Shown here: one piece after another, positions 2,026 through 35,505 of the stretch | Position numbering within the stretch: position 1 is the first letter of the stretch | Layout: the number at the start of each line of letters is the position of its first letter | DNA from: Candidatus Tectimicrobiota bacterium | GTDB lineage: Bacteria; JACPUC01 | NCBI GenBank assembly: GCA_016192455.1 | Contig: JACPUC010000001.1 | Coordinates: forward strand, 186,001 to 250,000 | Direction: 5' to 3' | DNA: 64,000 nt | Notes under the pieces: generated by a model | What the model was told of the DNA's origin: nothing | Seen by the model: only the letters and a program-made list of their open reading frames with translations | Databases searched by the model: none | Translations under genes and position numbers: made by a program

Positions 2026-3321
2026 CTACCTGCGCAGCAGCGGGTCGGAGCGGTCATGGCACTTCAGGCAGGCCTTGGTGTTGCGTTTTCGGATGCTCGA
2101 ACCGTCGAATCCACGCGGATGCGGCCGGATGTTCACGGTGGACGTGCTGTGGCACTGCAAGCAGTCGTCTTCGCGGTGACAAGCGGCGCAGGCCTGGATG
2201 TTCTTGCGAGCATAGTTGCGATGATGTTCGGCGGTGACGAAACCAAAGGTAACCCAGTCAGGTGGATGGAAGAGTCTTGTCAGCGGGAAGGTGTCGAGCG
2301 TGACCCGATGCTGCTCATGGCATGAACGGCAGAAGGATTCCAGGCGGTGGCAGCTTGAGCAGTTGAAGCGGTTGGTAAACGCGGTTTTTGGATGGGTGGC
2401 GATCCAGTCATTGGGGTGAATCTTGGCCGGTTTTTCGCCTCCCCCCCGCGCCGTGTAGCCTGCTTGGTGACACTTCGAGCACCAATCTTCGAGATGGCAG
2501 TTGCGGCAGAGGGCGCGATCCGCCTCAGCCTGGGGCCGGTGGTTCTTCACCCAGTTCTCATCGTGGAAGAACGTTCGACGCGGTCCGGGCTTCAAGACAC
2601 CAGTGGGGAACCGCAGGCGCAGCAGCCCATTTGCCTCGGTCAAGTGGCAGGTGGCGCAGGCCGCCGGCGGCCGCAGCCCGTTGATCGTCGTCGTGCCGTT
2701 GTGGCACTGCAGACAGACCTCCATGCGCGGCAGGTTGTCTCGCGTCGCAAGCTGAACCTTCTTGAAGTCGCCATGGCACTGCTGGCAAAGAATGCCGTTA
2801 TCGAGGTGCTTCTTGTGGGGGAAGTTGAGATTCGGCGGCGGCAGGAGCATGCGCTCTGGAGGAGCGTCCTTGAAGTTCACCGAGACGGTAGCTTTACCGG
2901 AGGTTGGATGACAGGTGGTGCAGGTGGCCGGTGGAAAGCGAGTCGCGGCATCAGGGGCAAATATCTTATGACACATGGCGCAACGGATATCATGCTTGGC
3001 GGCATCGCCTTTCAGCCGGGGGAGGTTATCGTCGCTGGCGTTCGTGCTGGTGCGCACCTGGTCGTGGCAGTAGGCGCAGGCCATCCCTTTCAAGTGCTTG
3101 TCATAAAAAAAACGCAGGGGAATGCGCTGCTGCGGAAAGATCACCTGAGACGGCGCAAGCTCGCCGGCGGAAAAGGGAACAGGATTTTCCGTGTGCGGGG
3201 CCGCAGCGTTTTCCGCGGCAGGAACACCGCGGACCGCAGCGACGAGGACGAGGCCCACGAGTACGAAACCCGCCAGCCGAACATAGACGCGGGAGCCAGC
3301 AAAACCGCCTGGGAAGCGCAC
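2026..3321 (-). CDS. Periplasmic multiheme cytochrome c (13 CxxCH)
   Basis: Signal peptide; 13 CxxCH motifs counted (CAYCH, CAMCH, CTTCH, CQQCH, CLQCH, CATCH, CRNCH, CSKCH, CSSCH, CRSCH, CAACH, CLQCH, CLKCH); cytochrome c3-like FPHKKH and repeated HxxxWxxxH distal-ligand motifs. Confidence 0.92.
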   Translation of the reverse strand: MRFPGGFAGSRVYVRLAGFVLVGLVLVAAVRGVPAAENAAAPHTENPVPFSAGELAPSQVIFPQQRIPLRFFYDKHLKGMACAYCHDQVRTSTNASDDNLPRLKGDAAKHDIRCAMCHKIFAPDAATRFPPATCTTCHPTSGKATVSVNFKDAPPERMLLPPPNLNFPHKKHLDNGILCQQCHGDFKKVQLATRDNLPRMEVCLQCHNGTTTINGLRPPAACATCHLTEANGLLRLRFPTGVLKPGPRRTFFHDENWVKNHRPQAEADRALCRNCHLEDWCSKCHQAGYTARGGGEKPAKIHPNDWIATHPKTAFTNRFNCSSCHRLESFCRSCHEQHRVTLDTFPLTRLFHPPDWVTFGFVTAEHHRNYARKNIQACAACHREDDCLQCHSTSTVNIRPHPRGFDGSSIRKRNTKACLKCHDRSDPLLRR

Positions 3322-3330
3322 GGCATCACC

Positions 3331-4710
3331 TCAAAGCTTGCCGCTGAAGTAAATGGTCAGCTCCGCCAGGAAGCGGAACTCGTTTCTGGAGAAATCGTTG
3401 ATTAGGTTCTCCACTTCAGCTCGAACTTCAATCTTGCGATCGTGGAGATACGAAAGGCCGAACCGTCCGCCGAAACTCGTATCTTCGTTGAAATCCTGGG
3501 TGATCTGCTTGTAGCGCACGACGTTCACGCCGGTTCTGAGGAGTAAGCGCTGCCGCAAGAACGCCTTGTTCACCCCAAGATCCACGCCGTGCTGAACGCC
3601 GCCGAACCCATCCCGGTACGTCAAGCTGAAGGTTAGGAGATCAAGTTGATAGGGCGACGGCGCGCCAAGGTTGGCGACCTCGATGCCGGTGCTGAGCGTA
3701 TCATTATCATCCTCTTTCTCCAGGGTGCGCTCGAAAAATTGCCGCTCTACCTGAAAGAAAGTGGAGAGGGTGGGACGAAAACGGTACGTCAATCGCCCGC
3801 GCAACGCATCGTAAGGGTTGACGTTGAAGACGTTAAAGATCGAATCGAGATCGAATTCGGGCTCGAAGCGCTGGTACTCGAGGCGGACATCGGCTGCCGG
3901 AGTGAGGCGCAGGAGAACACCGCCGAGCGCTTCGCTCATCTGCTCGAGCGGAATGTTGTAGCTCGTGTTGGCGTAGGTGTGCACCCAGGAGATCAGCTCG
4001 TGACTGAAATCGAAGCCGATCCTCTCCTGGCTCAGGTCGCTCTCGCGTTCCTGCCGGTCATAGCCGAGGGCGAGGAACGTCCCCGCCCGAGGCCTCCAGG
4101 AGACCCGCCAGCCGGCCGCCAGATCGCCGCTACGGCTCTTGCTCTCCCGCGGCGGCACGGGAAGCCCCAGGTATCCTTCGACGTTGAACGGACCGAGGCC
4201 GGCATAGGCAAGCTTTGCGGCGTCGGCACGGACAAAATCGAGCCCATGCGTGATCAGTTGCCTGCCAAGGTTCAGCGACAAACCGCGCTGCGGGTCTCCG
4301 GCATCGACGTAGGCATAGAGCACCCTGTCCGAGTCGAAGTCGCTGGAGAGGTCGTCGACGTGGCGCAGGCTGGCGAAGAAGCTGAGGTTTCGATCGCCGA
4401 TTTTGTAGAGATTGAGGTCAAAGAAGTGCGTCAACGGCTCGAACTCGACCCGCCGGCCGTCGCTGGCGGGGAATTGGCTTTTGCGGAAGAGCATGGAGTA
4501 GCGGCCGCTCAGCAGGGTGGCCCCGGCGCTGGCGTGCCAGATCAGGTGCGCCATCAGAAGGATGGGCAACCCCTTCCCTATGCGACCGAGGCGGAACGTC
4601 TTCAGGGTTCGAAACTCCGTCGGCATCCCTCGGTAAATCGGGAATATCGGGACAGGTTTCCAAGAGATGCGGACGGGGAGGGCGTGACGCCAGGGAAGCG
4701 TCTGAGTCAT
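3331..4710 (-). CDS. Putative outer-membrane beta-barrel (porin) protein; the start may be 4626
   Basis: Signal-like segment ending ASAGA, many amphipathic beta-strands, LNLGRQ motif, terminal strand FLAELTIYF; 9 bp upstream of the multiheme cytochrome gene. Confidence 0.65.
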   Translation of the reverse strand: MTQTLPWRHALPVRISWKPVPIFPIYRGMPTEFRTLKTFRLGRIGKGLPILLMAHLIWHASAGATLLSGRYSMLFRKSQFPASDGRRVEFEPLTHFFDLNLYKIGDRNLSFFASLRHVDDLSSDFDSDRVLYAYVDAGDPQRGLSLNLGRQLITHGLDFVRADAAKLAYAGLGPFNVEGYLGLPVPPRESKSRSGDLAAGWRVSWRPRAGTFLALGYDRQERESDLSQERIGFDFSHELISWVHTYANTSYNIPLEQMSEALGGVLLRLTPAADVRLEYQRFEPEFDLDSIFNVFNVNPYDALRGRLTYRFRPTLSTFFQVERQFFERTLEKEDDNDTLSTGIEVANLGAPSPYQLDLLTFSLTYRDGFGGVQHGVDLGVNKAFLRQRLLLRTGVNVVRYKQITQDFNEDTSFGGRFGLSYLHDRKIEVRAEVENLINDFSRNEFRFLAELTIYFSGKL

Positions 4711-4752
4711 GTCCGGCGGTTGAGCCGAGCGACTCCCCTCTGCGCCTGCTCT

Positions 4753-5814
4753 CTATCTCAACGTTCTCAGGTATTCGGCCACCGCCTCCGCCTCATCCGG
4801 GGTGAAGCGGAAGTTCGGCATGCGCCCGCCGGTGCCCAGGTTGTAAGCCTCGCGACGAATCTCCCGACTCTCGGTGAGGAACTCGATCAGCCATGTCACC
4901 TGCGCCTTGCGGCCCTGCTGGGCGAGGGAGGGAGCGATCTCGCGCCGCGGCGGCAGTCCCGGAATGTCGCCGTGGCAGCCGACGCAGTTGAACTGGGCCA
5001 TCAACTGCCGCCCCATCTCCGGCGTCACGTCGGGATTCTGCCGCACAGCCCGCTGATATTCCGCCGGCAGCGGGTCACTACTTTGGGTGACCAGGAAATC
5101 CCGCAGCGCGATCATCTGACGAGCCTCATCCCCGCCGAGGATGTCCTCAGGCCCGGAACTCTCGTCGTCAAAGAAATTCGGCATCTTCACACCAGGCTGG
5201 AAGCTCTGCGGATCTTGCAGCCAGCGGATAATCCAGTCGGGGTTGAGCCGTTGGGGGACCAGCGACAGGTCGGGGGCTCGTTCGTCAGGCTTGACCGAGC
5301 GCGATTCTTTCCCGCGCAGGTGGCAGGTAAGGCAATCGAGGTATTCCGGCGTCATGAGCTTCTTGGCGGCGTCGGTCAATTCCGGCTCGCTGCGCCCGGC
5401 AAACCTGAACTTAGCGGGGAGCGGTTCGTCGTGGCGCTTGCGCTGCGTTTCCAGGAACTTGGTGATGGCCAGCGCCTCCCGGTCACCGAGGCGGAAGGTC
5501 GGCATGCGCATGCGCAGCCACGGGCGGATGCTGCGCGGCTGCTTGAGGAAGTCGAATAACCACTCCGGGCGAACCCGTTCCCCTTCGAAATCGAGCGGCG
5601 GCGCGCCGGGTTGCGGCGTTTGATCTTCTATCTGGTGGCACGCCGCGCAGTTGAGGTCGGTGACGAGCTCGCGTCCCCTGGCGGCGAGGGGGGAGAGGTT
5701 GCGCTGCGCGGCCCAGGCGCGGGAAAGGGCGTGGTGCAGCCAAGCTCCCGGCTCGACGTTCCAGAGCAGCAGGAAAAGGAGCAGCACGCTGCAACGTCTG
5801 AAGAGGCGGCGCAT
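4753..5814 (-). CDS. Triheme class I cytochrome c (three tandem monoheme domains)
   Basis: CAACH, CLTCH and CVGCH, each followed by P-x-L, W-x3-(F/W)L and an MP(T/N)F Met axial ligand; signal peptide MRRLFRR. Confidence 0.88.
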   Translation of the reverse strand: MRRLFRRCSVLLLFLLLWNVEPGAWLHHALSRAWAAQRNLSPLAARGRELVTDLNCAACHQIEDQTPQPGAPPLDFEGERVRPEWLFDFLKQPRSIRPWLRMRMPTFRLGDREALAITKFLETQRKRHDEPLPAKFRFAGRSEPELTDAAKKLMTPEYLDCLTCHLRGKESRSVKPDERAPDLSLVPQRLNPDWIIRWLQDPQSFQPGVKMPNFFDDESSGPEDILGGDEARQMIALRDFLVTQSSDPLPAEYQRAVRQNPDVTPEMGRQLMAQFNCVGCHGDIPGLPPRREIAPSLAQQGRKAQVTWLIEFLTESREIRREAYNLGTGGRMPNFRFTPDEAEAVAEYLRTLR

Positions 5815-5963
5815 ACTCGACTCCCACGTGCAAAAGCCCTCGCCTTCAGAGCCGGAACACCTGAGCGCGATGATTTCGCCTGCCAGGCGCCGCGGCAGAG
5901 CAGCGCGCTCTCGCCACGCCTGGGCGCGGCGAGGGGCCATGGACGCGACGCGTCGGGGCGGCT

Positions 5964-6392
5964 TCAACGCGGCGGCGCCGTTGGTCCACCGCCCGCCGGC
6001 GCCTCCGTGAGCTCGATGTGCACGGTCACATCATCCGAAAGCGCCAGGCGTCGCGGCGCGCTTGGCGCAAACTTCTCCTTCTCCACGCGCAGCCAGAAGC
6101 GGTCGCCCCAGTTCTTGCTCGTATAGGTGAGCGGCGTGCGGCCGTTGCCGATCGTCAGGGGAACGAAGGTCGTGCCGTCCTGCGACCAGAAAATCCGCCC
6201 GTCCGACGGCGCGCTGGTCACCGTGAGGGTTCGTGCACGCTGCGTCGCCGCCTCGCGGGCCTGCCGCAGCACCGTCTCGGGCAACTGCCCGAGGTAGATG
6301 CGCCCGCAGGCCGGCAACCACAGCGTGGAGAGAGAGAAGAGGAGGATGAGGAGCACCGGCGACCGCCCGCGTCCGCGTCGTCCGGGATTCAC
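5964..6392 (-). CDS. Putative lipoprotein with PEGA-like domain
   Basis: Hydrophobic stretch plus lipobox LPAC; LTVTSAPSDGRI...GRTPL resembles PEGA; start uncertain (GTG 6392 or 6494). Confidence 0.6.
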   Translation of the reverse strand: MNPGRRGRGRSPVLLILLFSLSTLWLPACGRIYLGQLPETVLRQAREAATQRARTLTVTSAPSDGRIFWSQDGTTFVPLTIGNGRTPLTYTSKNWGDRFWLRVEKEKFAPSAPRRLALSDDVTVHIELTEAPAGGGPTAPPR

Positions 6393-6473
6393 GGGACGCG
6401 AGGGCGCCGAGCAAGCAGGCTCCACCAACTCAGCGGGTGTTCGCGACGGCATCCCACGCTGGGCTGATACCCT

Positions 6474-6487
6474 CTGATTCATCTCAA
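6474..6487. promoter_or_regulatory. Degenerate FNR/Crp-family box
   Basis: CTGAT-TCAT-CTCAA, an 8/10 match to TTGAT-N4-ATCAA, upstream of the lipoprotein-cytochrome-porin genes. Confidence 0.4.
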
Positions 6488-6657
6488 TCTGCACGGTTGC
6501 CCACCATCGCTATCTTCGTCGCGGAGCGAGAATCCGCGGCACAACCAGGGATGACTCTGGCCTGGCGAACGCGACCCGAACCCTGGGAGGCCGCCCCGCC
6601 GACATCCGGTGGGAGAAGTGAGCGTTCCCGCCGGCTGCCGGTCGTGGGTGTGGTTGG

Positions 6658-8727
6658 TTAATTGTTCGGCGCGCCGGCCGCCACCCAGGCGGTGATGGTG
6701 GCGATCGCCTCGTCGGACAGCGGCGTCCTGCCGAGGGGCATCCGCTCCCCAACGGCGGCAATGCCGCGGATTTTCTGCACCAGGTAGCTGTTATCGGGGT
6801 CGCCGGGTTGGATGCGGTTCAGCGTGTTGACCTCGACGCTCCGCATGCCGACGATGTTGCTGAACGCGTTCCCCTGCGACAGGTTCTGGTTGAGCATGGC
6901 GCGCGGCCCGGAATGGCACCCGGCAAGGGCGCAGTTCGCCGTGAAGATGGGTTGCACGTTGGCGCTGAAACTGACGGTTGGCTGGGGAGGCGGTGCCTCT
7001 TCAACAGGGCCCGCATCCGGCGTGGGTTCCACCACTGGAGTTGGTTCAGCAATCGGCTCCGTGTCGGAGACGCCAGGGATGTTTGGGAAGGCCTTGAGGT
7101 AGAAGGTATGTGACCAGAGCATTTCGTTGGAGAGATGCATGGCCCCGGCACTATCAAAGTAGGTGTTGGTAACCATCCACGTCTTGGTTACGGGGTTGAT
7201 CGTAATCTCGGTAGCGAAGACTGGCGCCACGCCATTCTTTCCACCTGCCATTGGCGGGAGTGGAAGGGTGGGATACCGGTGGTCGATGTCGCGCAGCCGC
7301 TCGAATGCACCAATGCTTGAAGACGGTGGAGCCGAGCGTTTCAATCCACTCTGATTCACGGCGCTCTCAAAGAAGTTCAACCAGAGCGCCTTCACGGTTG
7401 TCTGGTTGACCGCATCGCCGCCTATTTGATTTAACGCGTTCAAAGCGCCGAGGATCGCGGCGATATCATCGACATGGTAGACGTGTTGACTTGTGAAGTA
7501 TCCGTGCGTCCAATCGTACTCAGCCACCAAGGCGTTGAAGACTTCGGCCGCGGCGGTCAGGAAGCGTGGCGCCCCGCTCGTGCGCGCCGCTTCGATGAGG
7601 CCCCGCACCGCATAGGCTTTCGAGCGCACCGTCGGTTTCTCGGCGGCGATGAGGGCATCTCCGAATGCCGCAATCTTGGCGAGAGCCGCGGCGCGGTTGG
7701 CGTCGTTGGTCGTATAGGCGGCGTACCACGCCAGGCCGGTGGCGGCGACCGCCTGTTCGATCACCGTGCTGGGCGGCTCGCCCGCGGCGATCTCCGCAAA
7801 CAGCGAGTCGGCGGCGCTGCCGAACATGGCGCCCATCTGAGCATCCCGGTAACGGTTCGTGTCGCTGCCATCGAGGGCGTCCCGGCTCTTCACGTCGGCG
7901 AGGTCACTCAACGCCTGCAGCATGACGTAGGTGCCGATCTTGCTGCTGACGAACGGCGTGGCGTCTGCCGCACCGGTCCGCCAGTTCATCCACTCCATGG
8001 CTTGCATGGCGGCCTCCATGGCGAGGACCATGCCGATGAAGCGCTGCTGGGCGCCGAAGGTGGCCGTGGGCGCGCCGAAATGCGGCTCGAAATGGAAGAG
8101 CCGAGCCCATTCGATCTCTTTGATCATGGTGTAGGCTTGCGCTTCGACGGTCACCGTCGTATCAAACGAGCTGGCATCCCAGCGGAAATTGCTGAAATCA
8201 CCCGAGTTGCCGTTATTCTCGTTCACCCAGACGGGATTGCCTGATTTGTAGACTGCTCGAAGCAGGGCCGGGTTTGTCGGGGGCATGGCCGCGTCGCCAT
8301 CGTTGGGATCGGGATCGAACATTGGAATCGCGGCCATCACCTGAGCCATATCCGGCGCAAAGGTTACGCCGAGGCCCGAGGTCATCACCAGTTCGCCCAA
8401 GTTGTACCGCGAGTACCAATACCCTTCATTCACCAGCGCGCGCTCGTCGAACTCCGGATTGTGGCCGGCAAGGAGCGACTCCTGCCTGCCGAAGCTCCCG
8501 TTGAACCTCCAAGATAAGCTCGCTTCGTCCCACTCGAACTCGGCCCAGAAACGATCATTGGGCGTTGCGTTGAGTCCGAGATTATAGATGCGGATAGTTT
8601 GGTCGGCGACACCCGTGGTCCGCACAAAGGCGTCGCTGAAATTCACCAAGCCCTGCGCCCTTGCATCAAGGCTCAGCACCAGAACAACGAGAACGGAGCA
8701 CGACAGGGTAAGCAAGTAGCGTCTCAT
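6658..8727 (-). CDS. Secreted protein with helical core, Pro/Glu linker and C-terminal cytochrome c domain (CX4CH)
   Basis: Signal peptide ending ARA; C-terminal FSANVQPIFTANCALAGCH...PGDPDNSYL...RMP...WVAAGA cytochrome c domain. Confidence 0.75.
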   Translation of the reverse strand: MRRYLLTLSCSVLVVLVLSLDARAQGLVNFSDAFVRTTGVADQTIRIYNLGLNATPNDRFWAEFEWDEASLSWRFNGSFGRQESLLAGHNPEFDERALVNEGYWYSRYNLGELVMTSGLGVTFAPDMAQVMAAIPMFDPDPNDGDAAMPPTNPALLRAVYKSGNPVWVNENNGNSGDFSNFRWDASSFDTTVTVEAQAYTMIKEIEWARLFHFEPHFGAPTATFGAQQRFIGMVLAMEAAMQAMEWMNWRTGAADATPFVSSKIGTYVMLQALSDLADVKSRDALDGSDTNRYRDAQMGAMFGSAADSLFAEIAAGEPPSTVIEQAVAATGLAWYAAYTTNDANRAAALAKIAAFGDALIAAEKPTVRSKAYAVRGLIEAARTSGAPRFLTAAAEVFNALVAEYDWTHGYFTSQHVYHVDDIAAILGALNALNQIGGDAVNQTTVKALWLNFFESAVNQSGLKRSAPPSSSIGAFERLRDIDHRYPTLPLPPMAGGKNGVAPVFATEITINPVTKTWMVTNTYFDSAGAMHLSNEMLWSHTFYLKAFPNIPGVSDTEPIAEPTPVVEPTPDAGPVEEAPPPQPTVSFSANVQPIFTANCALAGCHSGPRAMLNQNLSQGNAFSNIVGMRSVEVNTLNRIQPGDPDNSYLVQKIRGIAAVGERMPLGRTPLSDEAIATITAWVAAGAPNN

Positions 8728-8873
8728 TGGTACACCCTTTCACGCTGTCCCCCCCCAATGAATCACTGAGTTCCAGGTCAGGTGTTGAAGCCGCACACCT
8801 CCCAAGTAACGAAAACGAAAATGAGGTTGACCATATTCCACGAAAGGAAAAAATTTAAGAAAAAATCTAAAAT

Positions 8874-8887
8874 TTGATTTGTATCAA
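8874..8887. promoter_or_regulatory. FNR/Dnr-type binding site
   Basis: TTGAT-TTGT-ATCAA, a perfect match to the FNR consensus, in an AT-rich intergenic region upstream of the 689-aa gene. Confidence 0.7.
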
Positions 8888-9264
8888 GGAATGTTTTCAT
8901 TGCGGTCGGAATCACCAAGAAACTCACCATCCGAGCGTGAATGAGTGTGTGGTCGTTACGCCTCACAGCGGTTGCTTTCATGCAAGGTTCCACTATGTAC
9001 TGTCCAAATTAGACAGGCTGGATTTATCATGTTCGGGGAGCGGCTTTTGGCGCCGCGAAGCGTGCATCCAGCCAGGCTTCCATCCCTGCCGCCGCGGGGA
9101 GCGGTGCACGGGTGCGCGACGCTCAGCTTCACATGACTCCTCCGCGACGGGTGCGCGGCGTCCGCCTCTTCGGGGCCTGGCCAGCGGAGCGCTCCGTCTC
9201 CGCTGCTGAAGCGTGTTGGCGCCGCCGTCGACGCTCGGGTCGACGGCGGCGCCCCCAGGGTGGA

Positions 9265-10356
9265 CTACTGCACCGTCACGGAACCCACCATGCCGCCCGC
9301 GGCATGTCCAGGAACGGTGCAGAGCGAAGGGTAGATGCCGCTTTTGGTCGGCACGACGAACAGCTCCGTGCTTCCGCCCACCAGGAGTTCAATGGCATTG
9401 AAGTACGGCGCCTTGATCTCCGCGTGAGAGTCCTCCGCCTTGCGCAGGACGAGGGTGCGGTAGAAATCAGTGGTCGTGAAGTAATGCTTCGAGCCGTTGC
9501 CGGCAGGGTTCTGAATTTTCACCACGTAGGCGTGATCCTTCGCCAGGGGGACGCTGGACGGACTAAAGGAAAAGTCGCCTGCCTCGGGACCTTCGACCAA
9601 CGTCACCTCGACGGTCTCGCGGCTGCTCCAGACCTCGTGCGAGCCCGAGGTTCGCGGATCAATGTCCAGAGGCCGGGACCACTCCGAGGCCACCTGCAGG
9701 TCAATGGGATTCTGGGGCTCGCCGACCACGGTGATGGTTCCCGTCATGCCCAGCTCGGCATGGCCTGGGATGGTGCAGAGAAAGCCGTACTCGCCCGGCA
9801 CCATCGGCACGAAGAAGAGCTCGAGCTGACGGTCGGTTCCAGTCTTCAGCTCAAACGCTTTGAAGTACGGCGCCTTGTACTCTGCATCGCCGGTTTGCGC
9901 CTTGCGTGTGGCAATGCTCTTGTAAAACTCGGCCGCCGTGAGGTAGTGCTTGCTGGCATTGCCGTTGGCATTCTTGATGCGCAGAATGTAAGGGCGGCCG
10001 GCGGTGAAGGTGAGGTGGTTCGGCTCGAACACGAACTGCGTGCTGCTCAGCTCCTTCATCTCGACGGTGACGGTTTCCACCGCGCTCCAGTTGGCGGAGC
10101 TCACCACGTCGCTGCTTGATTCCACCCTGCCGACGCCGGCGGTGCCGAGCTCGAACTTCATCGTCACGGGGTTCCACACCATGTGCGCCCAAAACTCGCC
10201 GTCCACGCCTTCGACCGTGATGCCGCTCAGCACCACCCCCGTCTTGCCGCTGGTGGCTGAGGAGGTATTCGACAGGTCAATCGGCACCTCGGCATGAGCT
10301 ACGTGGACTGACACCAGCAACAACGCCGCTACCATTACGACTGTGCATGTTTTCAT
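9265..10356 (-). CDS. Secreted tandem cupredoxin (two type-1 copper domains)
   Basis: Signal peptide MKTC...AHA; two repeats with SKHY...CTIPGHAELGM and SKHY...CTVPGHAAGGM (His-Cys-His-Met ligands). Confidence 0.88.
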   Translation of the reverse strand: MKTCTVVMVAALLLVSVHVAHAEVPIDLSNTSSATSGKTGVVLSGITVEGVDGEFWAHMVWNPVTMKFELGTAGVGRVESSSDVVSSANWSAVETVTVEMKELSSTQFVFEPNHLTFTAGRPYILRIKNANGNASKHYLTAAEFYKSIATRKAQTGDAEYKAPYFKAFELKTGTDRQLELFFVPMVPGEYGFLCTIPGHAELGMTGTITVVGEPQNPIDLQVASEWSRPLDIDPRTSGSHEVWSSRETVEVTLVEGPEAGDFSFSPSSVPLAKDHAYVVKIQNPAGNGSKHYFTTTDFYRTLVLRKAEDSHAEIKAPYFNAIELLVGGSTELFVVPTKSGIYPSLCTVPGHAAGGMVGSVTVQ

Positions 10357-10560
10357 CGCCGGTTTCCTTCCGTTGCCTGGGTCTTGGCTCTGTTCCCCCC
10401 CGTCCACCATGTCCTCCCCCCATGGGGAGCCTGGAAGCTGGTCTGCCTGGCCCGAACGCCGCCCCGACGCGGGTCGCCGACCCATGCCGCCGGCTTCCAG
10501 GGCCGCTCGGAGCTTCGGCTTCCCCCCCTTGTCCCCCCTGGTCAGCACAGGGAGCGGCGC

Positions 10561-10616
10561 AAAAAAAAGGCGTAACCCGCGTGCGAAGACACCTTCGCAC
10601 CTCCAGGGTTACGCCT
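10561..10616 (-). terminator. Rho-independent terminator after the ECF operon
   Basis: Minus strand AGGCGTAACCC...GTGCGAAG/CTTCGCAC...GGGTTACGCC long stem followed by T8. Confidence 0.8.
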
Positions 10617-10667
10617 ACACTCAAGCAGCCCGGAGCTGCCGCGTCAGACGTTCCGGCCGCGCCGCTC

Positions 10668-11033
10668 TTAACTTGTACGACTCTTCTGCAGAGCTCCCGT
10701 CAGCTCCTTCCGCAAGGTTTCAAGCTGTTTGGACTTGAAGGCTTTTCTGGTTTCCTCCAGCACCTCAATGGCATGCTCGATCACATGCTCGAGCAAGCGG
10801 CGGCGACCGCAGCTCACCAAGGGGCAATAACTGCTCACCCCTTCTGGGCGCTTGGTCTGCTCCAGCAAGACAGTGTTGAGAATCTGCCGCTGGTGCTCCA
10901 CCCGGGTGATGATCTGCTCGGCAACCTGGTTCACGTAGCCCAGCAAATCACGGTCGAGAGATCGAGGAGATGCCGCCGGCGCCGCCACCGCCTCGGCCCC
11001 GCTGTCGCGGCGTGCTGACAAAGCGTCTCTCAT
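10668..11033 (-). CDS. Small helical hypothetical protein with CPxxxC motif
   Basis: Third gene of the sigma/anti-sigma unit; YCPLVSC followed by an amphipathic helix AIEVLEETRKAFKSKQLE. Confidence 0.65.
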   Translation of the reverse strand: MRDALSARRDSGAEAVAAPAASPRSLDRDLLGYVNQVAEQIITRVEHQRQILNTVLLEQTKRPEGVSSYCPLVSCGRRRLLEHVIEHAIEVLEETRKAFKSKQLETLRKELTGALQKSRTS

Positions 11034-11068
11034 GACAAAACCTTCCGGGCAACACCTTGCGGCCCGTC

Positions 11069-11896
11069 CTAAGGCTTCAAGCCTCGCTGGGTGGTCGCGC
11101 CGGGCTCAGTCAGCGCTACGCAAAGCTCCGCATAGCGCAGGAGCTCCTCTTCCGTCTGATTGGAGATGAGCACGTGAACCTTCCCCGCCGCCGTCCAGGC
11201 AGCGACGTGATGGTCCTGGTAAGGGCCATGACGAATCGTCAGCGAATCAACCTCGTGGCGGCGAGGTAAGTCTAGGACCATGTTCGAATCCCGAAACGCC
11301 AGATACCCCAGTCGATCGTCTCCCTCGTGGTACTCCACGAGCGCGGCGACCCGCCCGTCCAGGTTCACCACGGAAGCCCCGTCCAGGATGTAACCAGCCA
11401 GCGATGCCCGCGGCACCACCACCGAGAAACCGAGGCGTTCGTTCAACCATTCATCCACCTTCCAGAAGTCGCCCGAGCGGAAACCAAGCTCATGGCGCTG
11501 GGTGGCATGGCTTTCCTGCAGCTCAAGCAGCCGCGGCAGCAGCGCCGAGAGCATGGACCCCGCCGGCAGCCGATCGAGGCGCCAGACGCCAACCCCAAGC
11601 ACCGCCAGCACCGCCAGCACCGCCGCCACCGCCAGCGGCGCTACAACCTGCCAATGCAGGGTCCAGCGGCTGGCGAGTTTGTGCAGCTCCAGCCCGATCC
11701 GTTGATTCAGCTCCGCGGGAGCCTGGTGCTTCGTCTCCATGGTGCGCAGCGTCGCCCGCACCTGACTGAAGAACTCGAAGCGCTTGCCGCAGGTAAGGCA
11801 TTCCTCGAGGTGGCTGTGAATATCCGCATTCGTCTTGGCGTCCAGTTCACCGTCGAGGAACACATAGAGGTAGCGATTTAGGTCATGGCACTGCAC
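11069..11896 (-). CDS. Zinc-binding (ZAS/zf-HC2) transmembrane anti-sigma factor
   Basis: MQC...FLDGEL...HLEECLTC; one TM helix; His-rich periplasmic domain; abuts the sigma gene. Confidence 0.88.
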   Translation of the reverse strand: MQCHDLNRYLYVFLDGELDAKTNADIHSHLEECLTCGKRFEFFSQVRATLRTMETKHQAPAELNQRIGLELHKLASRWTLHWQVVAPLAVAAVLAVLAVLGVGVWRLDRLPAGSMLSALLPRLLELQESHATQRHELGFRSGDFWKVDEWLNERLGFSVVVPRASLAGYILDGASVVNLDGRVAALVEYHEGDDRLGYLAFRDSNMVLDLPRRHEVDSLTIRHGPYQDHHVAAWTAAGKVHVLISNQTEEELLRYAELCVALTEPGATTQRGLKP

Positions 11897-11897
11897 T

Positions 11898-12464
11898 CTA
11901 GGACCCCTCGGCCTGCCGTAACTTCGACAGATGCCGCTCCAAATCGCACCGAGCTCGAGAGAGCCTGGACATTACAGTTCCGATAGGGACATCAATGATG
12001 CCGGCGATCTCGCGGTACGTAAACCCTTCCACATCCGCAAGAATGATGATGAGGCGATGCTCGGCCGATAAGCGCGACAGCGCCTCCTCAAGGCACTGCC
12101 AGGTAAAGCGGAGGTCGACAACCTTTTCCGGATCTTGACTGGAACAGGAGCTGAACAGCGCCGCGACCTCTTGACCCCATCGTTCCTCATCCCACGCAAA
12201 CGGGTCAACGGGGATCTCCTTCTCCTTCTCCCTGATCAGGTTCTTCCACGTATTGAAGAGAATGGAGAACAGCCAGGAGCGTCCCTGCTCGGCCCGGTTG
12301 AGTTGTTTGAAATTCTGATACGCCTTGCAAAACGTCTCCTGCACGAGATCATCAGCGTCCGCAGGTTCCTGCACCAAGCGCAGCGCCGCGAAATGGACGG
12401 CATCGAGATGGGGAAGGATCACCCGCTCGAACTCTCGACGATGATCCTTGCGGCGAAATAGCAT
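11898..12464 (-). CDS. ECF RNA polymerase sigma-70 factor
   Basis: DADDLVQETF (region 2) and TYREIAGIIDVPIGTVMSRLSRAR (region 4); ATG 12464 preferred because it has an RBS and lies downstream of the ECF-type promoter. Confidence 0.92.
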   Translation of the reverse strand: MLFRRKDHRREFERVILPHLDAVHFAALRLVQEPADADDLVQETFCKAYQNFKQLNRAEQGRSWLFSILFNTWKNLIREKEKEIPVDPFAWDEERWGQEVAALFSSCSSQDPEKVVDLRFTWQCLEEALSRLSAEHRLIIILADVEGFTYREIAGIIDVPIGTVMSRLSRARCDLERHLSKLRQAEGS

Positions 12465-12497
12465 CGGCTTCCCCGAACTTGGCCTCTTCACCAACGT

Positions 12498-12524
12498 AGA
12501 CACCGGGAAGCATTGTTTTATTCC
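12498..12524 (-). promoter_or_regulatory. Putative autoregulatory ECF promoter
   Basis: GGAATA-N17-GTCT on the minus strand just upstream of the sigma gene. Confidence 0.55.
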
Positions 12525-12617: not shown

Positions 12618-15600
12618 TCATCGCCGGCGCGGCCGCCGCAGGCTCGTCCGCAGATCAAGGAAGAGCGCGAAGAGCACCGGCACCAGCACCAGGGTGAGGA
12701 GGGTGGAGACGGTGAGGCCGCCCACCACCGCCGCCCCCAGGCCGCTGTAGAGCTCGGCGCCGGCCGAGCTGGCCGACTCGGGGAGGAGCCCGAGCGCGCC
12801 CACCACCGGCTCGATGTGGAGTGCCCCGGCGAGACGCTGCATGGCCAGGCCGAACTCATTGCCGGCGGCCAGCGGCAGCATGCCGAGGACGCTGGTGATC
12901 GTGGTCATGAAGATCGGCCGGATGCGCGAGCGCGTGCCCTCGATGAGCGCCTCGTACGGCTCCATCCCCTCGTTGCGCATGAAGTTGAGGGTCTGGTGCA
13001 CGAGCAGGATCGCGGTGTTGACGACGATGCCGCTGAGCAGGATGAACCCCAGGCGGGTGATCATCGTGTACTCGGAGTGGGTGAGGCGCACCGCCAGGAT
13101 GGCGCCGCTGGCGGCCAATGGCACCGTGATGATGATGATGAGCGGGTAAAGGAAGGACTCGAACAGCGACGCCATGAGCAGGAAGATGATGAGCACCGCG
13201 AAGACCAGCGACCAGCTCACCTCGCGGATCGCCACCTGCAGCTTGTCGGCGCTGCCCGCCAGGGTGAACGAGTACCCCTGGGGGAGGGTGCGGCGCAGCG
13301 GCTCGAGGACCTCGTTCGTCACCGCCTCGATCACCTGCCCGAGGGGCGCGTTCTCGGCCACGTTCACCGTGAGCCTCACGGCGCGGTCAAGCTCGATGTG
13401 ATCGATCTTCGTGGGGCCGGTGGTCTTCTCGAGCTGCGCGATGCTGGAGAGCTTCACCTGCATGCCGTTGGGCGTGTAAACGATGAGGTCGGAGAGCGCG
13501 GCGGTATCGTGGTAAACGCCGCGAGTGCCCTTGACGCGCACATCGATCTTATCGCCCCCTTCGCGGTACTCGGTGGCGACCCGGCCGGCCACGAGCGTCT
13601 CGACGACGTCCGCCACCTCGCGCACGGAAAGGCCGAGATCGGCGGCGCGCTCACGGTCAACCTTCACCTGCACCTCTGGGTTGCCGGTCTCGTAACTCGT
13701 GCGCACGAAGGTGACGCCCTCAACCCCCTGCCCACTCGCAGGCGGTGAGGCGAAAGCTCCGCCGTCCCCGCCGGGCGGGCCGGGCCGTACCTCCCGCCGG
13801 CCATCCCTCGCCCTGCCGGCCTGGCCATCCCCGTCACCCGCGGCCGGGCGCGCCGCCGGCACGGCCCGACCGGCGACCGTCTCGGGACGAGGCGTGATCT
13901 CCGGCTCCGCTGCCGGCGCTTCAACGGGCGGCGCTCCGCTGAGCGGGCCGCGCGGCGGCATGATCCGGTTCTTGATGCGTTCGGAGATGTCGGCGACAAC
14001 GTCGAGGTCCTTGCCGCGCACCTCGATATCGAAACTCTTGCCGAAATCCCGGCTGAAGATGTTGCTCTGCAAGGCGAGAGCGAACTCAAACCCGGGAACG
14101 CCGGCGGTGAGACCCTGAACCTTCGCGACCAACTGCTTGAGCTGCGGCTCGTACTCTCGCTTCGCGCTGATGCCGATGCCTTTGAAGCGCTCCCCGGCCA
14201 CCGCGAAGAGGTACTTCACCTCCGGCAGGCCCAGCAGCCGATCCTGGACGCGATCCGTCAGCTCCTCCAGCTTGTCCAGGTTCGTGCCGGGGAAGGGTTT
14301 CAGCACCACGAAGATGAAGTTGCGGTTGCCGCCGGGGAGATACTCCGACTTCGGCAACACCTGGATGCTGGCCACGAATCCCATGGTCACCAGGAGCAGC
14401 AGGGCAACTTTTTGCAGGGTGGCCGCGAGGGTTGTCCGGTAGGCTAGCGGGGTTGCCTGACGCCCGGGGAGGCCGCCGGTCGCATCGTGGACGCCGAAGT
14501 CCGCGGCGGTCAACGTCGAAGTTCCCTCACCAGGCGCCGGGGCGGTAGGGCCCCTCCGGCGCAGTGCCCGCGGCAGCCCCGCGCGGGCCGCCGCCAGCAG
14601 CCCGGCGGCGAGGGTGGGGGCGATGAAGAGGAGCCAGGCCTGTGCCGTCGGCCAGGGCGAAGGGGCCGGCGACGAGGGCCGGTGGCCAGGGGGTCCGAAG
14701 CCGGAAGCGGGCTGCGGCGCGGCGAGCGGCTCCCAGAAAAATCGCCAGCCATCCGCCGCGGGCTGCACCATCAACGGCAGGAGAAGGACGATGAGCAGCG
14801 CCGCCAGCAGCAGCACGCCGATCAACGGGTGGGGGGCTGTCGGCGCCTCGCTCTCGTCGCGGCTCGCGGCCGCCACGGGGCTCGCTCCGGCCGGCGCGTC
14901 GAAGAGCTCCGCCGCTCCTTCCGACGGCGCGGCGGGCGGGCTCGACGCAGCCCGCGCACCGCCTTGCGAGGGGGTTGGAGCGCCCCGATTGTGGGCCAGG
15001 CGCAGGACGGTGTCGAGCAGGAGGTAGCTCAAGGGAGCGAGGGCAAGCCACTCATAGAGTCCCAGTCCCCGGCTGACGAGGCTGCTCAACAGCCCCCCGG
15101 CGGCGAGAGACGCCGCGGCAAGCGCCAGCAGCCGGCGCGTCTCGTCGCGCTCCAGCTCAACCGGCCGCGTCAGCCAGCGGACCGACTCCACGATCAGCCA
15201 GAAGACCCAGCGGCTCAGCCACCCCAGGAGCGCCAGGTCGACCAGGAAGCGCGTCCCAGCGAAGCGCTTTGGGCTCCGCCCTGAACCGCCTGCCGGTCTG
15301 CCTCCCAGACGGCGCCCGAATCGATTCCACCATGATGCTCCCGGCTCCGTCGCCTCGCCGGCGCTCGCGGCGCCCTCCCTTGCCGCGGGAGGGACGTTCA
15401 GCTTCGAGGCGCTGATGCGCAGGAAGCGGGCGCAGAGCATCGGGATGACGGTGATGGAGACGAGGAGCGATAGCCCCACTGCGGCGCTGATCGCCAGCGC
15501 CAGGTCCTGGAAGAGCTGCCCCACCTCCTCCTCGACGAAGAGGATGGGCAGGAAGACCGCCAGCGTCGTCAGGGTCGAGGCCAGCACGGCGCCCCAGACC

Positions 15601-16886
15601 TCGCTGGTGCCGTCATAAGCGGCGGCCATCCGGTTTTTGCCCATCTGCAGGTGGCGGTAGATGTTCTCCAGCACCACGATGGCGTTATCCACCACCATGC
15701 CGACGGCAAAGGCCAGCCCCGCCAGGGAGATGATGTTGAGGGTCCGTCGGAAGGCGAGGACCACGATGAAGGTGCCGATGAGGGAGATCGGGATGGAGAA
15801 GCCGATGATGAGCGTGCTGCTCAGGCTGTGCAGAAAGAAGAGCAGCACGAAGACCGCCAGGAAGGCGCCGAATCGCAGGTTCTGGGTGACGAGGGCGATG
15901 GCGTCGCGGATGTACTCGGTCTCGTCGTAGACCGGCTGCAACTGCATGCCGCGCGGCTCGAGGTGCTGATTCAACTCGGCGACGGCGCGGCGCACGCCCT
16001 CGATGACGGTCAGGGTGTTCGTTCCCGTCTTCTTGATGACGCCGAAGCCGACGGTGGGCACGCCGTGCTCCTTGATGACGGCGTCGCGCTCCTCGAAGCT
16101 GTCGATCACCTCCGCCACGTCCTTCACGTAGACCGGGACGCCGCCATTCTTGGCGATGATGACGTTCTCGATCTCCTTCACGGCGCTGAACTGCCCCACG
16201 GTGCGCACCGCCCAGCGGCGCTTCCCCTCGTCGACGTGGCCGCCGCGCACGTTGCGGTTCTCATTGCTGAGGGCGTCGCGCACCTGGGCGATGCTGAGGC
16301 CGCGCGCGTTCAGGGCGCGATGGTCGAGGATGACGTGGATCTCGCGCTCCTGGCCGCCGAACTGCCGCAGATCGCCGACGCCGGCGACCCGCTTCAGGCG
16401 CGGCGCAATGAGGTCGTCGGCGTACTTGCGCATGGTGTTGACCGGCAGGTTGCCCTTGATCAGCATCCACATGATCGGCTGCGCTTCATCGCTCGAGATG
16501 GCGGAGATGATCGGCTCGTCGGCATCCTCCGGCAGGTCTTCCACCAGGTTGAGCTTCTTCAGGATGTCGATGCTGGCGAGGTCCTTGTTCACCCCCCAGT
16601 CGAACTCCAGGGTGATCGACGAGCGCCCCTCCTGCGAGGTGGAGGTGATCTTCTTGACGTTCTCCACCGAGTTGAGCTTCTCCTCGATGCGGTCCGTCAC
16701 CTGCTGCTCGACCTCCTGCGGCGCGGCGCCGCGGAAGGTCGTGTTGACGGTGATCTCCGGCTGGTCGATGGTGGGCTTGAGCTGCACGGGAACGCGGTAC
16801 AGCGCCAGCACGCCGAAGAGCGCCAGGAGGAAGACCGCCGAGATAACGGAGACGGGGCGCGTGGTGGCGGTGTGGATGAGCTTCAT
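12618..16886 (-). CDS. RND efflux permease (AcrB/AcrD/AcrF family) with large insertions
   Basis: RPVSV N-terminus, GMVVDNAIVVLENI, SRIRPIFMTT; about 1420 aa versus about 1050 typical. Confidence 0.92.
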   Translation of the reverse strand: MKLIHTATTRPVSVISAVFLLALFGVLALYRVPVQLKPTIDQPEITVNTTFRGAAPQEVEQQVTDRIEEKLNSVENVKKITSTSQEGRSSITLEFDWGVNKDLASIDILKKLNLVEDLPEDADEPIISAISSDEAQPIMWMLIKGNLPVNTMRKYADDLIAPRLKRVAGVGDLRQFGGQEREIHVILDHRALNARGLSIAQVRDALSNENRNVRGGHVDEGKRRWAVRTVGQFSAVKEIENVIIAKNGGVPVYVKDVAEVIDSFEERDAVIKEHGVPTVGFGVIKKTGTNTLTVIEGVRRAVAELNQHLEPRGMQLQPVYDETEYIRDAIALVTQNLRFGAFLAVFVLLFFLHSLSSTLIIGFSIPISLIGTFIVVLAFRRTLNIISLAGLAFAVGMVVDNAIVVLENIYRHLQMGKNRMAAAYDGTSEVWGAVLASTLTTLAVFLPILFVEEEVGQLFQDLALAISAAVGLSLLVSITVIPMLCARFLRISASKLNVPPAAREGAASAGEATEPGASWWNRFGRRLGGRPAGGSGRSPKRFAGTRFLVDLALLGWLSRWVFWLIVESVRWLTRPVELERDETRRLLALAAASLAAGGLLSSLVSRGLGLYEWLALAPLSYLLLDTVLRLAHNRGAPTPSQGGARAASSPPAAPSEGAAELFDAPAGASPVAAASRDESEAPTAPHPLIGVLLLAALLIVLLLPLMVQPAADGWRFFWEPLAAPQPASGFGPPGHRPSSPAPSPWPTAQAWLLFIAPTLAAGLLAAARAGLPRALRRRGPTAPAPGEGTSTLTAADFGVHDATGGLPGRQATPLAYRTTLAATLQKVALLLLVTMGFVASIQVLPKSEYLPGGNRNFIFVVLKPFPGTNLDKLEELTDRVQDRLLGLPEVKYLFAVAGERFKGIGISAKREYEPQLKQLVAKVQGLTAGVPGFEFALALQSNIFSRDFGKSFDIEVRGKDLDVVADISERIKNRIMPPRGPLSGAPPVEAPAAEPEITPRPETVAGRAVPAARPAAGDGDGQAGRARDGRREVRPGPPGGDGGAFASPPASGQGVEGVTFVRTSYETGNPEVQVKVDRERAADLGLSVREVADVVETLVAGRVATEYREGGDKIDVRVKGTRGVYHDTAALSDLIVYTPNGMQVKLSSIAQLEKTTGPTKIDHIELDRAVRLTVNVAENAPLGQVIEAVTNEVLEPLRRTLPQGYSFTLAGSADKLQVAIREVSWSLVFAVLIIFLLMASLFESFLYPLIIIITVPLAASGAILAVRLTHSEYTMITRLGFILLSGIVVNTAILLVHQTLNFMRNEGMEPYEALIEGTRSRIRPIFMTTITSVLGMLPLAAGNEFGLAMQRLAGALHIEPVVGALGLLPESASSAGAELYSGLGAAVVGGLTVSTLLTLVLVPVLFALFLDLRTSLRRPRRR

Positions 16887-17105
16887 GGGACGGTACAAGC
16901 AAGGGGGGCCGGGATGGTCGGGGTTGACGCGGCCGCGGGCCGGCCCGACGCCAGGCCCGGCGGACCGTCGCGCACCGCCGCCGCGAACATCTCTCCCCTG
17001 GAGCTGCGCGCGGCATGAGCGGCACGGGGGGTGGTCAGAGGTCGAGGGGAGGCGAGGCCGGCGGCGAGGGACCGCGGCGCCTGCACCGCGCTCGCCGCGG
17101 GGCCC

Positions 17106-21489: not shown

Positions 21490-22521
21490 ATGCAGACGCT
21501 TAGTCGTGGAACGATAGCTGCCCTGCTTAGCCTCGCCCTCGCTTTTCTTCTCTTTCCCGCTGCCGTCTTCAGCGCCGAGTTCACGATGAAGTGCGGCACG
21601 CCTGGCGCGGCGACCGATCCTCTCACGAAGCAAGTGGAGTGGGGCCTGAAGGAGATCGAGAAGCGCTCGAATGGCCGCATTACGGGTCGCGTCTTTCCGG
21701 CCTCGCAGCTTGGCGGCAACATTCAGATGATCGAGCAGTTGCAGCTCGGCACGCTGGAGTGCACGAACGGCGCGGTGGCTTTCCTGAGCGGCGCCTACCC
21801 GCCGGTGACCATCTTCGACCTCCCCTTCGTCTTCCCCGATGACCCCGAGGTCATGCGCAAGGTCCTGAAGGAGGGCAAGAGCGCGCGCTGGCTGCTCGAT
21901 GACATGCAGCGGGTGGGCCTGAAGGGCTTGGCCTTCCATACCAGCGGGTACAAGCAGTTCACCACCAACAAGCCGGTGCGCAAGCTGGAGGACATGCGAG
22001 GCATCAAGTTCCGCTCCATGACCTCGCCCATCCTGCTCGAGCAGTTCAAGTCGCTGGGCGCCAACGCCGTGCCGGTCGCCTTCGCGGAGACCTACAGCGC
22101 CTTGCAGACCGGCGTCGCCGAGGGCCAGGAGAACCCCTACTGGGCCACCCATAAGATGAAGTTCTTCGAGGTCCAGAAGTACCTGATTCAGACCAACCAC
22201 GGGGTCATCATCTCGCACGTCCTGGCCAGCAAGAAGTGGTGGGATCGCCTCCCCGCCGACCTGGGGAAGATCGTGCGCGAGGTCTTCGTCGACGCCGAGG
22301 AGGTTTTCTGGAACGAGAGCATGAAAGCCGACGAGGAGGCGATCCAGGTCATGAAGAAGGCGGGGCTGCAGTTCATCAAGCTTGCTCCCGAGGAGCGGGC
22401 GCGCTTCCGCAAGGCCACCGAGGGGGTGAAGAATGTCTACATCAACCGTATCGAGAAGGGCAAGATGCTGCTTGACATGCTGGAAGCCGACATCGCCTCG
22501 TTCGCAAAGCAGGGGAAATAG
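21490..22521 (+). CDS. dctP: TRAP transporter substrate-binding protein, copy 1
   Basis: FPASQLG, DLPF, KFRSM (conserved Arg), ETYSALQTGVAEGQENP. Confidence 0.95.
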   Translation: MQTLSRGTIAALLSLALAFLLFPAAVFSAEFTMKCGTPGAATDPLTKQVEWGLKEIEKRSNGRITGRVFPASQLGGNIQMIEQLQLGTLECTNGAVAFLSGAYPPVTIFDLPFVFPDDPEVMRKVLKEGKSARWLLDDMQRVGLKGLAFHTSGYKQFTTNKPVRKLEDMRGIKFRSMTSPILLEQFKSLGANAVPVAFAETYSALQTGVAEGQENPYWATHKMKFFEVQKYLIQTNHGVIISHVLASKKWWDRLPADLGKIVREVFVDAEEVFWNESMKADEEAIQVMKKAGLQFIKLAPEERARFRKATEGVKNVYINRIEKGKMLLDMLEADIASFAKQGK

Positions 22522-22537
22522 TAGCAACGGCGGAGCG

Positions 22538-22557
22538 CCTGTCTGCCGACAGGCAGG
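22538..22557. repeat. REP-like palindrome
   Basis: CCTGTCTGCCGACAGGCAGG, same arms as the hairpin at 670-696. Confidence 0.55.
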
Positions 22558-22611
22558 CCTGAGGAGGCGCTGTCGCTAGCGGCGGCAACCTCGCGCAAAA
22601 GGAACCTGGCC

Positions 22612-23634: not shown

Positions 23635-23715
23635 GGGAGTGAGCAGCAACGGACCGGCGCCCGAGACGGCGCGATCAGTCTAGGCAGCACTCTGGTGCAG
23701 GGAAGGAGACCGTGT

Positions 23716-25779: not shown

Positions 25780-25785
25780 TCCGCC

Positions 25786-27072: not shown

Positions 27073-27195
27073 CCGCAGCGCCTGCACACCGGCCCCCCCG
27101 CCCCAGCGGCAGGCCGAGGGGCCGTTCCGTGCGCGGGCGCCATGCATGCTCCGCCCCCTCTGCGGTTGGAGGCGAAAAGACCCGTTTGCCCAATC

Positions 27196-27300: not shown

Positions 27301-27306
27301 TCCGCC

Positions 27307-34174: not shown

Positions 34175-34286
34175 TGAATTATCACCATGACAGTCTGCGT
34201 TTGCTATACTCAACTTGAAGCATCTTCCTGCATAGAGGGTCTGCCGAGAACGTTCGGTTGAGCGCCGTAGAGGGGGCGAACATCTC

Positions 34287-35503: not shown

Positions 35504-35505
35504 GT

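Follow-up and report, generated by a model that had tools for sequence, protein, structure and literature searches.

Conduits of the Pcc family, in which an outer-membrane porin is paired with a multiheme cytochrome, are usually seen as devices for metal respiration whose last element is a multiheme cytochrome. Here we describe a set of nine genes, all on the minus strand at positions 2026-12503 of a 64,000-nucleotide stretch (the window) of contig JACPUC010000001.1 from a Candidatus Tectimicrobiota bacterium, in which a porin and a 13-heme cytochrome that very probably belong to this family lie close to a gene for an exported protein of 689 residues, composed of an (alpha/alpha)6 toroid and a monoheme domain. 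The published Pcc list contains porins with 18-22 strands (OmbB, GSU2644 and GSU2726 among them) and cytochromes with 5-14 hemes (OmaB among them), and it gives monoheme third genes for Geobacter M18 (PMC4282303 supplement). Two-gene forms with 12-14 hemes are described in passages of PMC4245776, and passages of that paper and of the PMC4282303 supplement report a larger cytochrome where the multiheme outer partner is absent. According to sections of PMC6148476, Pcc/Ext clusters serve metal and electrode reduction, and the Ext and OmcB components are not homologous (18-26% identity), contrary to the 2014 grouping. A preprint on peat describes, in the parts concerned, other porin-cytochrome clusters with 8-13 hemes (10.64898/2026.05.27.727921), which may overlap with the 13-heme subfamily treated here.

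The porin gene precedes the cytochrome gene in our locus, as it does in OmbB/OmaB/OmcB, in GSU2644/2643/2642 (ExtBCD), in GSU2726/2725/2724 (ExtEFG) and in the two-gene loci of Anaeromyxobacter and Kuenenia. Shared features are a porin of about 400 residues with 18-22 strands and the same motifs, and a cytochrome of 5-14 hemes with a common rod. In contrast to these systems, the cytochrome here is of a 13-heme Myxococcota-type subfamily with a c7/ActA-like extension, an OmcB-type multiheme is absent, with the toroid-monoheme fusion as candidate partner and no multiheme lipoprotein as third gene in the locus, and a triheme cytochrome, a PEGA lipoprotein and a cupredoxin stand alongside. The conduit is of a known kind, and the toroid family is the most novel element and a lead worth following.

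A Pcc-type porin and a 13-heme cytochrome

The gene at 3331-4626 (minus strand; longest open reading frame (ORF) to 4710) encodes an outer-membrane porin of the Pcc/OmbB family, as judged by its fold model, its motifs and a co-fold. It is separated by 9 bp, the only tight coupling in the set, from the gene at 2026-3321 (minus strand) for a periplasmic cytochrome c of Pcc type, with 13 CxxCH motifs and matches to PF14522 and TIGR04257. The AlphaFold2 model of the barrel, made with a 127-row alignment, has about 22 strands and no plug, with a predicted local distance difference test (pLDDT) value of 91.7, and its fold matches are barrels only (top Z 19.9, root-mean-square deviation (rmsd) 4.6, 354 residues aligned). 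This confirms that the 3331-4710 product is a beta-barrel, as a sequence-only reading of the same DNA had proposed. There is no Pcc porin among the 50 fold matches listed, and one may still be present further down.

The barrel alignment has six columns that are invariant or nearly so. All of them have OmbB counterparts at the same spacing (compared by eye, with no E-value), and five of the six are kept in our copy. The common motifs are GRQ, an Asp 14 residues on, a Gly 19 further and GDLAxG; the distance from GRQ to the surface-loop motif PxFxxxSI(F/Y)xVF is 141 residues in our barrel and 143 in OmbB. On the side of the cytochrome, a 234-residue octaheme open frame found beside a family barrel aligns with the C-terminal half of the 13-heme protein (30% identity, E 9e-23) and carries a stretch resembling a published OmaB antigen peptide, the comparison covering that peptide rather than the whole of OmaB. 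Searches of solved structures by sequence gave only weak porin matches for the barrel profile and none for the octaheme. The C-terminal part of the 13-heme protein (residues about 229-422) is an OmaB-like seven-heme rod. The N-terminal part is a c7/ActA-like region of six hemes with ActA and GSU1996-type matches, whose ligands in the family alignment are His apart from one invariant Met200. At residue 73, our copy has Tyr in place of a near-invariant His, and the ligation of one heme is possibly altered.

On homology and modelling, we hold it very likely that the pair belongs to the Pcc family (OmbB/OmaB, ExtB/C, ExtE/F). By the OmbB motifs and spacings and the OmaB-like rod, what the sequence-only reading had put forward as a possibly undescribed conduit thus matches, at family level, an already characterised complex. 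That reading had also set the barrel and its multiheme wire apart from MtrAB, and here it holds. MtrAB, MtoAB and PioAB likewise thread a cytochrome in a barrel, and MtrB is in the fold list (6r2q_B, Z 16.6, rmsd 4.9, 341 aligned), but our barrel is much shorter and the hemes number 13 instead of 10; the MtrB_PioB and DmsE families of Pfam/NCBIfam match neither the barrel nor the 13-heme protein.

Co-folding of the barrel with the 13-heme protein, without hemes, scored 0.62 against 0.00 for the best control, in line with the pairing drawn by the sequence-only reading. In the calibration of this test, 116 of 157 solved pairs and 2 of 215 mismatched pairs attained the mark; our runs share at least 85% of contacts at a partner pLDDT of at least 72, and the pass may stem from resemblance to solved porin-cytochrome complexes. 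Cytochrome residues 229-421 line the barrel lumen in the model, and a barrel loop at residues about 256-268, conserved in the family, caps the last hemes; by strand parity, a rule that we presume to apply, this loop is predicted to be extracellular. Homology and modelling together show the pair as a predicted trans-outer-membrane conduit, with the rod threaded in the pore.

We then turned to the distribution of the pair. Among 80 metagenomic loci of the 13-heme family, the barrel gene lies directly upstream in 57, and in the remaining 23 the contig starts less than 500 bases from the cytochrome gene. The barrel profile matches 70 of 401 sampled genomes (63 of 348 genera), our own included, and 29 of the 30 barrel loci listed from this sample (again including our own) adjoin a rod cytochrome with 5-14 hemes. 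This spread suggests that Pcc conduits are far commoner than the 2014 lists indicate and are missed by the Pfam/NCBIfam copies used. In a tree of barrels made by a quick method (54 rows), our barrel and one metagenomic protein group with weak support (89) between Myxococcota-type and other clades. The named homologues of the 13-heme protein are from Myxococcota and Deltaproteobacteria; a plasmid search with this protein gave no match.

The genome itself (G000; 4.46 Mb, 88% complete), to which none of the comparison genomes is nearer than the same domain, also encodes DmsE/MtrA- and OmcA/MtrC-type decahemes and yields 17 molybdopterin oxidoreductase matches; PF11854 has no match in it. A multiheme cluster on another contig (G000:C22:189000-207000; L191, L192) contains a DmsE decaheme, an unassigned neighbour of 678 residues that likewise has no PF11854 match, an OmcA/MtrC decaheme, a cytochrome b and further 8-11-heme proteins.

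The 689-residue protein joins a toroid to a heme domain

The gene at 6658-8727 (minus strand) encodes the exported toroid-monoheme protein, recognised by a structure model, its homologues and a heme-domain profile. It consists of a signal peptide, a small beta module, the toroid (residues about 92-550), a Pro-rich linker and a monoheme domain (about 580-689) with one CX4CH motif at residue 599. The toroid domain, which makes up 70% of the protein, was missed by the sequence-only reading. Its model is an (alpha/alpha)6 toroid with pLDDT 88-99 per 10-residue block over the core, and the best fold matches (VIA) are AGE-type epimerases (Z 23.7, rmsd 3.1, 314 aligned, 8% identity). No Pfam or NCBIfam family matches the toroid, nor does any PDB sequence at E up to 1. 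The mature N-termini of this protein and of the cupredoxin (window 8480-8655 and 10105-10290) share a similar FWA-x-x-x-W motif, set in a short beta module in each; a common module was not significant by phmmer.

The heme domain connects the protein to the Pcc pair. There is no direct Pfam match to PF07635 (PSCyt1), but phmmer run with the domain recovers, at E 1e-13 or better, some proteins with a passing PF07635 score. Where at least 1.5 kb is available downstream of the 13-heme gene, 35 of 47 loci have a CX2-4CH monoheme gene, a count that is not independent because the loci are largely kin; in the layouts inspected it directly follows the cytochrome. A profile of these monoheme lipoproteins aligns with the C-terminal domain of the 689-residue protein (HHalign 98.3%, E 1.7e-14). 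Related monoheme domains flank the Pcc pair in 5 of the 29 other genome-sample loci, among those listed, and within G000 the 689-residue protein is the sole match of both monoheme profiles. Its CX4CH domain is, on this sequence evidence, a candidate for the usual third Pcc gene.

Distribution and neighbours of the toroid family

The 'YWYSRYN' toroid family, as we call it, comprises 174 homologues at E up to 0.001, and the 120 listed share 39-51% identity, bar one near-identical copy. Its hosts include Chloroflexota, Bipolaricaulota, Thermotogae, alphaproteobacteria, Acidimicrobiia and haloarchaea, among others, and in the broad genome sample it is rare (3 of 401 genomes, our own included). All 30 homologues whose names were looked up are called 'hypothetical protein'. 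One homologue (P0043) carries PF27998, a family of unconfirmed identity that may cover part of the toroid family. A literature search returned no description of the toroid family or the 13-heme subfamily, a weak negative given that the family is nameless. LPxTG-like anchors end 40 of the 120 homologues and 15 of the 120 have a lipobox, which indicates that the toroid works outside the cytoplasm.

Fusions to electron carriers occur in four forms: a C-terminal PSCyt1-like heme (our protein, L092 and P0015), a C-terminal cupredoxin (L087, L091, L094 and P0072), an N-terminal cupredoxin (haloarchaea) and an N-terminal monoheme (L242 and L243). We retained 79 toroid loci from GTDB genomes, and 22 of them have a carrier within the toroid protein or close by. 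In four of the 79 (L074, L079, L083 and L092) a Cyc2-like gene directly follows the toroid, with a variant of the N-terminal motif given in passages of 10.1101/228056. Besides this Cyc2-like monoheme porin, L074, L079 and L083 encode a diheme cytochrome and a cupredoxin of small size. Cyc2 is a fused cytochrome-porin, whereas our window uses a Pcc multiheme conduit instead. Two toroid genes surround the porin at L092, where genes for MNIO (DUF692) and ECF are also close. These repeated associations with heme or copper carriers hint at a redox role, and we consider it fairly probable that the family is redox-active.

Many toroid loci are in metal and thiol-stress islands. Neighbours in the 79 loci include ZAS anti-sigma factors (7), thioredoxin reductase-like proteins (9), P-type ATPases (5), MerR (4), MerA (2) and MNIO (2), as well as ECF sigma factors, and all of these except ECF number 0 in 80 control loci, a weak control in that its queries were drawn from toroid loci and the taxa differ. 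Other neighbours are thioredoxin systems, DUF3179 and pentose-phosphate genes; DUF3179 recurs near toroid genes in archaea and bacteria (L203-L205 on haloarchaeal plasmids, L049 and L074).

Across 17 diverse toroids, the conserved positions are aromatics together with Lys203, His216 and Asn residues; a multi-His metal site, tried as a hallmark of the toroid, is unsupported in distant members. The conserved residues include Tyr103, Trp104, Tyr105, Tyr108, Trp183, Lys203, Trp207, Phe211, His216, Asn430, Asn534 and Trp538. AGE/cellobiose 2-epimerases and six-hairpin glycosidases have the same (alpha/alpha)6 fold at Z about 23, though they differ from our toroid in that it is exported and joined to electron carriers. 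The toroid might keep a carbohydrate site, acting as a surface sugar dehydrogenase that gives electrons to the fused carrier or as a non-redox hydrolase or epimerase. In favor of such a sugar-acting enzyme are the top folds (mannose, cellobiose and GlcNAc 2-epimerases, GH76/88/105), the aromatic-rich conserved residues, 6-phosphogluconate dehydrogenase in 7 and glucose 6-phosphate dehydrogenase in 5 of the 79 loci, and GH15/GH57/GH63-like and glucose dehydrogenase genes near some toroids. We nevertheless consider it quite improbable: identity is 8-11%, many toroid families score almost the same top Z values, distant toroids do not keep the acidic residues, and the pentose-phosphate neighbours equally fit NADPH supply in stress islands.

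Gene layout and the FNR-type site

The ORFs, CxxCH counts and Pfam/NCBIfam matches bear out nine co-oriented genes with the cofactor motifs that the sequence-only reading had reported. A library scan found an ECF sigma factor, a zf-HC2 anti-sigma factor, two Copper-bind stretches, cytochrome c and c7/c3, and in a codon-usage test each of the nine genes outscores overlapping frames, the 13-heme, lipoprotein, sigma and small genes weakly. Likely starts shorter than the longest ORFs are at about 10356, 6356, 5811 and 4626. Just 3' of the cupredoxin stop, the intergenic sequence reads as a hairpin (9218-9253, minus strand) with a 15-bp GC stem and no T run, a possible terminator or RNA stabiliser that is absent from the genome's listed terminator-like sites. 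Because of this hairpin and a 537-bp gap after the cupredoxin, the nine genes are not one tight operon, and with the FNR-type box in the same gap they form at least two units; the remaining gaps are about 120-300 bp with the corrected starts.

The box itself is a perfect FNR/Crp-type palindrome, TTGAT-N4-ATCAA, at 8874-8887, in an AT-rich stretch 147 bp upstream of the 689-residue gene; we take this pattern to be the FNR consensus. Perfect sites with a spacer of 4 bases number six in G000, while spacers of 2, 3, 5, 6 and 7 bases give 1, 3, 0, 0 and 2. Four of the six lie in AT-rich DNA, and apart from the one at 8874-8887 these precede operons for benzoyl-CoA reductase, a 4-hydroxybenzoyl-CoA-reductase-like enzyme and a tetrathionate-reductase-like enzyme. 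The genome has three Crp/Fnr genes, two of them with N-terminal Cys clusters. Given the excess of sites, the anaerobic operons behind the other AT-rich sites and the Cys-cluster regulators, anaerobic activation of the five genes downstream of the box is plausible. Of the ECF/FNR control proposed by the sequence-only reading, the FNR-type site is present and the ECF part stays putative.

This layout bears on whether the locus is a patchwork, with the Pcc pair and triheme placed beside an independent unit for metal and thiol stress in the envelope, made up of the ECF sigma, the ZAS anti-sigma, the small protein, the cupredoxin and the toroid, in which the toroid acts off the conduit. The loose gaps, the internal hairpin, the lack of a second toroid-Pcc locus and the ECF, ZAS, thioredoxin reductase-like, P-type ATPase, MerR, MerA and MNIO neighbours of toroids elsewhere would all agree with it. 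However, the box sits between the toroid gene and the ECF unit, oriented towards the genes from toroid to 13-heme cytochrome, the heme domain of the toroid protein is homologous to the gene that normally comes third in this Pcc subfamily and of which G000 has no other copy, and the control behind the stress neighbours is the weak one described above. We regard a patchwork as somewhat unlikely.

Accompanying carriers and other genes

The gene at 4753-5811 (minus strand; longest ORF to 5967) encodes a class I-like triheme cytochrome c with a signal peptide, three CxxCH motifs and a distal Met-Pro motif after each heme. Its paralogue on contig C20 (E 3e-35) is the octaheme of a Rieske/cytochrome b operon. 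At 9265-10356 (minus strand; longest ORF to 10548) lies an exported two-domain type-1 cupredoxin, matching PF00127 twice and bearing two complete type-1 copper ligand sets (His...Cys-x4-His-x4-Met), and 53%-identical cupredoxins occur in genome G055 directly after a cytochrome b operon containing the octaheme. As their kin sit in or after cytochrome b operons, the triheme and the cupredoxin look like respiratory carriers of the bc-complex type. The His/Met monohemes and blue-copper sites noted by the sequence-only reading are present. G055 also encodes this cupredoxin as tandem genes with two and four domains, together with one fused into a 1740-residue secreted protein (L266, L267).

CopI and rusticyanin-type cupredoxins are likewise exported type-1 copper proteins, but the form here is a tandem of two domains and all NCBIfam scores are far below cut-off, the CopI models giving 25.7 bits against 280 and 16.3 against 200. 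CopI acts under microaerobic conditions according to PMC13308877, and a role like that proposed for CopI can be imagined for our locus: in copper redox detoxification, the toroid would bind Cu(I) through Met, His and aromatics and oxidise it without O2, the electron passing to the heme or the cupredoxin and on to the respiratory chain or the conduit. The Leisingera plasmid NZ_CP081057.1 (L202:8460-14356) bears an operon MerR-CcdA-toroid-Cu(I)-type P1B ATPase-CcdA, three of the 79 toroid loci have Cu-type ATPases, cupredoxin fusions occur, and many homologues have a Met-rich helix (mean Met 4%); the weak CopI matches point the same way. We judge copper detoxification unlikely, since the Leisingera toroid is a divergent member, the window has no Cu exporter, the helix of our own copy is poor in Met, and metal islands gather many unrelated genes.

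The other genes of the set are a small lipoprotein (5964-6356, minus strand; longest ORF to 6494) with a lipobox in its sequence, no Pfam match and a PEGA-like beta domain, for which the ESM Atlas gave structure matches to PEGA (TM 0.5-0.6); a helical protein of 121 residues (10668-11033, minus strand); a ZAS zinc-binding membrane anti-sigma factor (11069-11896, minus strand; PF13490, with TIGR03988 below its cut-off); and an ECF sigma factor (11898-12503, minus strand, probable start 12464; TIGR02937 above cut-off). The 121-residue protein, previously described as a small Cys protein, has only 2 Cys; it has homologues in 10 of 401 genomes, our own included, some of them in settings of metal uptake, adjoining FeoB, a TonB receptor or a porin.

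Elsewhere in the window, directly upstream of the ECF sigma gene and on the same strand, 12618-16898 encodes an RND permease of 1426 residues with long Pro/Ala-rich insertions. Genes for TRAP transport, namely three for DctP in tandem, one for DctQ and two for DctM, lie at 21490-28593 near aromatic-degradation genes. A low-GC (about 49%) insert of three genes, with no Pfam match at 1e-10, is located at 34258-35865 between hydantoinase/oxoprolinase A and B, and its last gene is, we presume from its look, HEPN-like.

Proposed function

The explanation we favor, tentatively and at slightly less than an even chance, is an anoxia-induced Pcc conduit coupled to a recruited toroid-heme redox partner. 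The seven-heme OmaB-like rod would thread the 22-strand pore up to the conserved loop at the surface, and the c7/ActA-like extension with its six hemes would stay periplasmic. Under anoxia, the five genes that follow the FNR-type box would be read together, and a Rieske/cytochrome b complex would hand electrons from the quinone pool to the triheme, perhaps also to the cupredoxin, and from there to the wire and the outside. The toroid-monoheme fusion would stand in for the OmcB-type multiheme or the usual monoheme lipoprotein, its heme domain serving as docking and relay point and its toroid as catalytic or substrate-binding head of an extracytoplasmic redox protein. With Mtr-type decahemes and many molybdoenzymes in the same organism, outward flow appears somewhat more probable than inward flow, which keeps a substantial chance.

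Several observations weigh against this proposal. The Pcc pair occurs in 0 of 79 toroid loci, as does any barrel or 13-heme homologue, and 0 of 80 loci of the 13-heme family contain a toroid, cupredoxin, triheme or lipoprotein homologue. The nine genes, envisaged by the sequence-only reading as one system, are thus not a conserved module, and no other genome searched has the set; G041 has a toroid and a Pcc pair, on different contigs. With the queries used, 57 of the 79 toroid loci have no carrier; of the 22 with one, 15 come from Anaerolineae/Chloroflexota kin. No conserved FNR-type box precedes the other toroid genes (2 of 65; control 4), and such a box was rejected as a feature of toroid genes. 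Across distant toroids no metal-ligand set is invariant, with only His216 recurring (15 of 17). The 689-residue protein has no lipobox and so may be periplasmic, whereas related Pcc-linked monohemes look like lipoproteins. As to direction, the layout of a G055 locus (L268, G055:C19), where a Pcc barrel and 14-heme cytochrome have an NrfD/Fe-S/cytochrome complex on one side and a heme-copper oxidase on the other, suggests inward electron flow.

A wider proposal, which we put forward as doubtful, is that the 'YWYSRYN' toroids are an unrecognised class of surface or periplasmic redox enzymes with a glycosidase-like fold, an aromatic/Lys/His site and no known cofactor motif, to which carriers have been joined repeatedly and which are wired to two outer-membrane conduits of unrelated kinds, Cyc2-like and, in our locus, Pcc, the Pcc conduit here being capped by a catalytic head instead of a multiheme.

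If true, a Pcc pair that works with a non-heme catalytic domain would imply a particular substrate, either outside the cell or in the periplasm, and would extend the idea of modular caps. The toroid family is widespread and unannotated and has cultured hosts, including haloarchaea and Leisingera, which makes its possible redox role directly testable.

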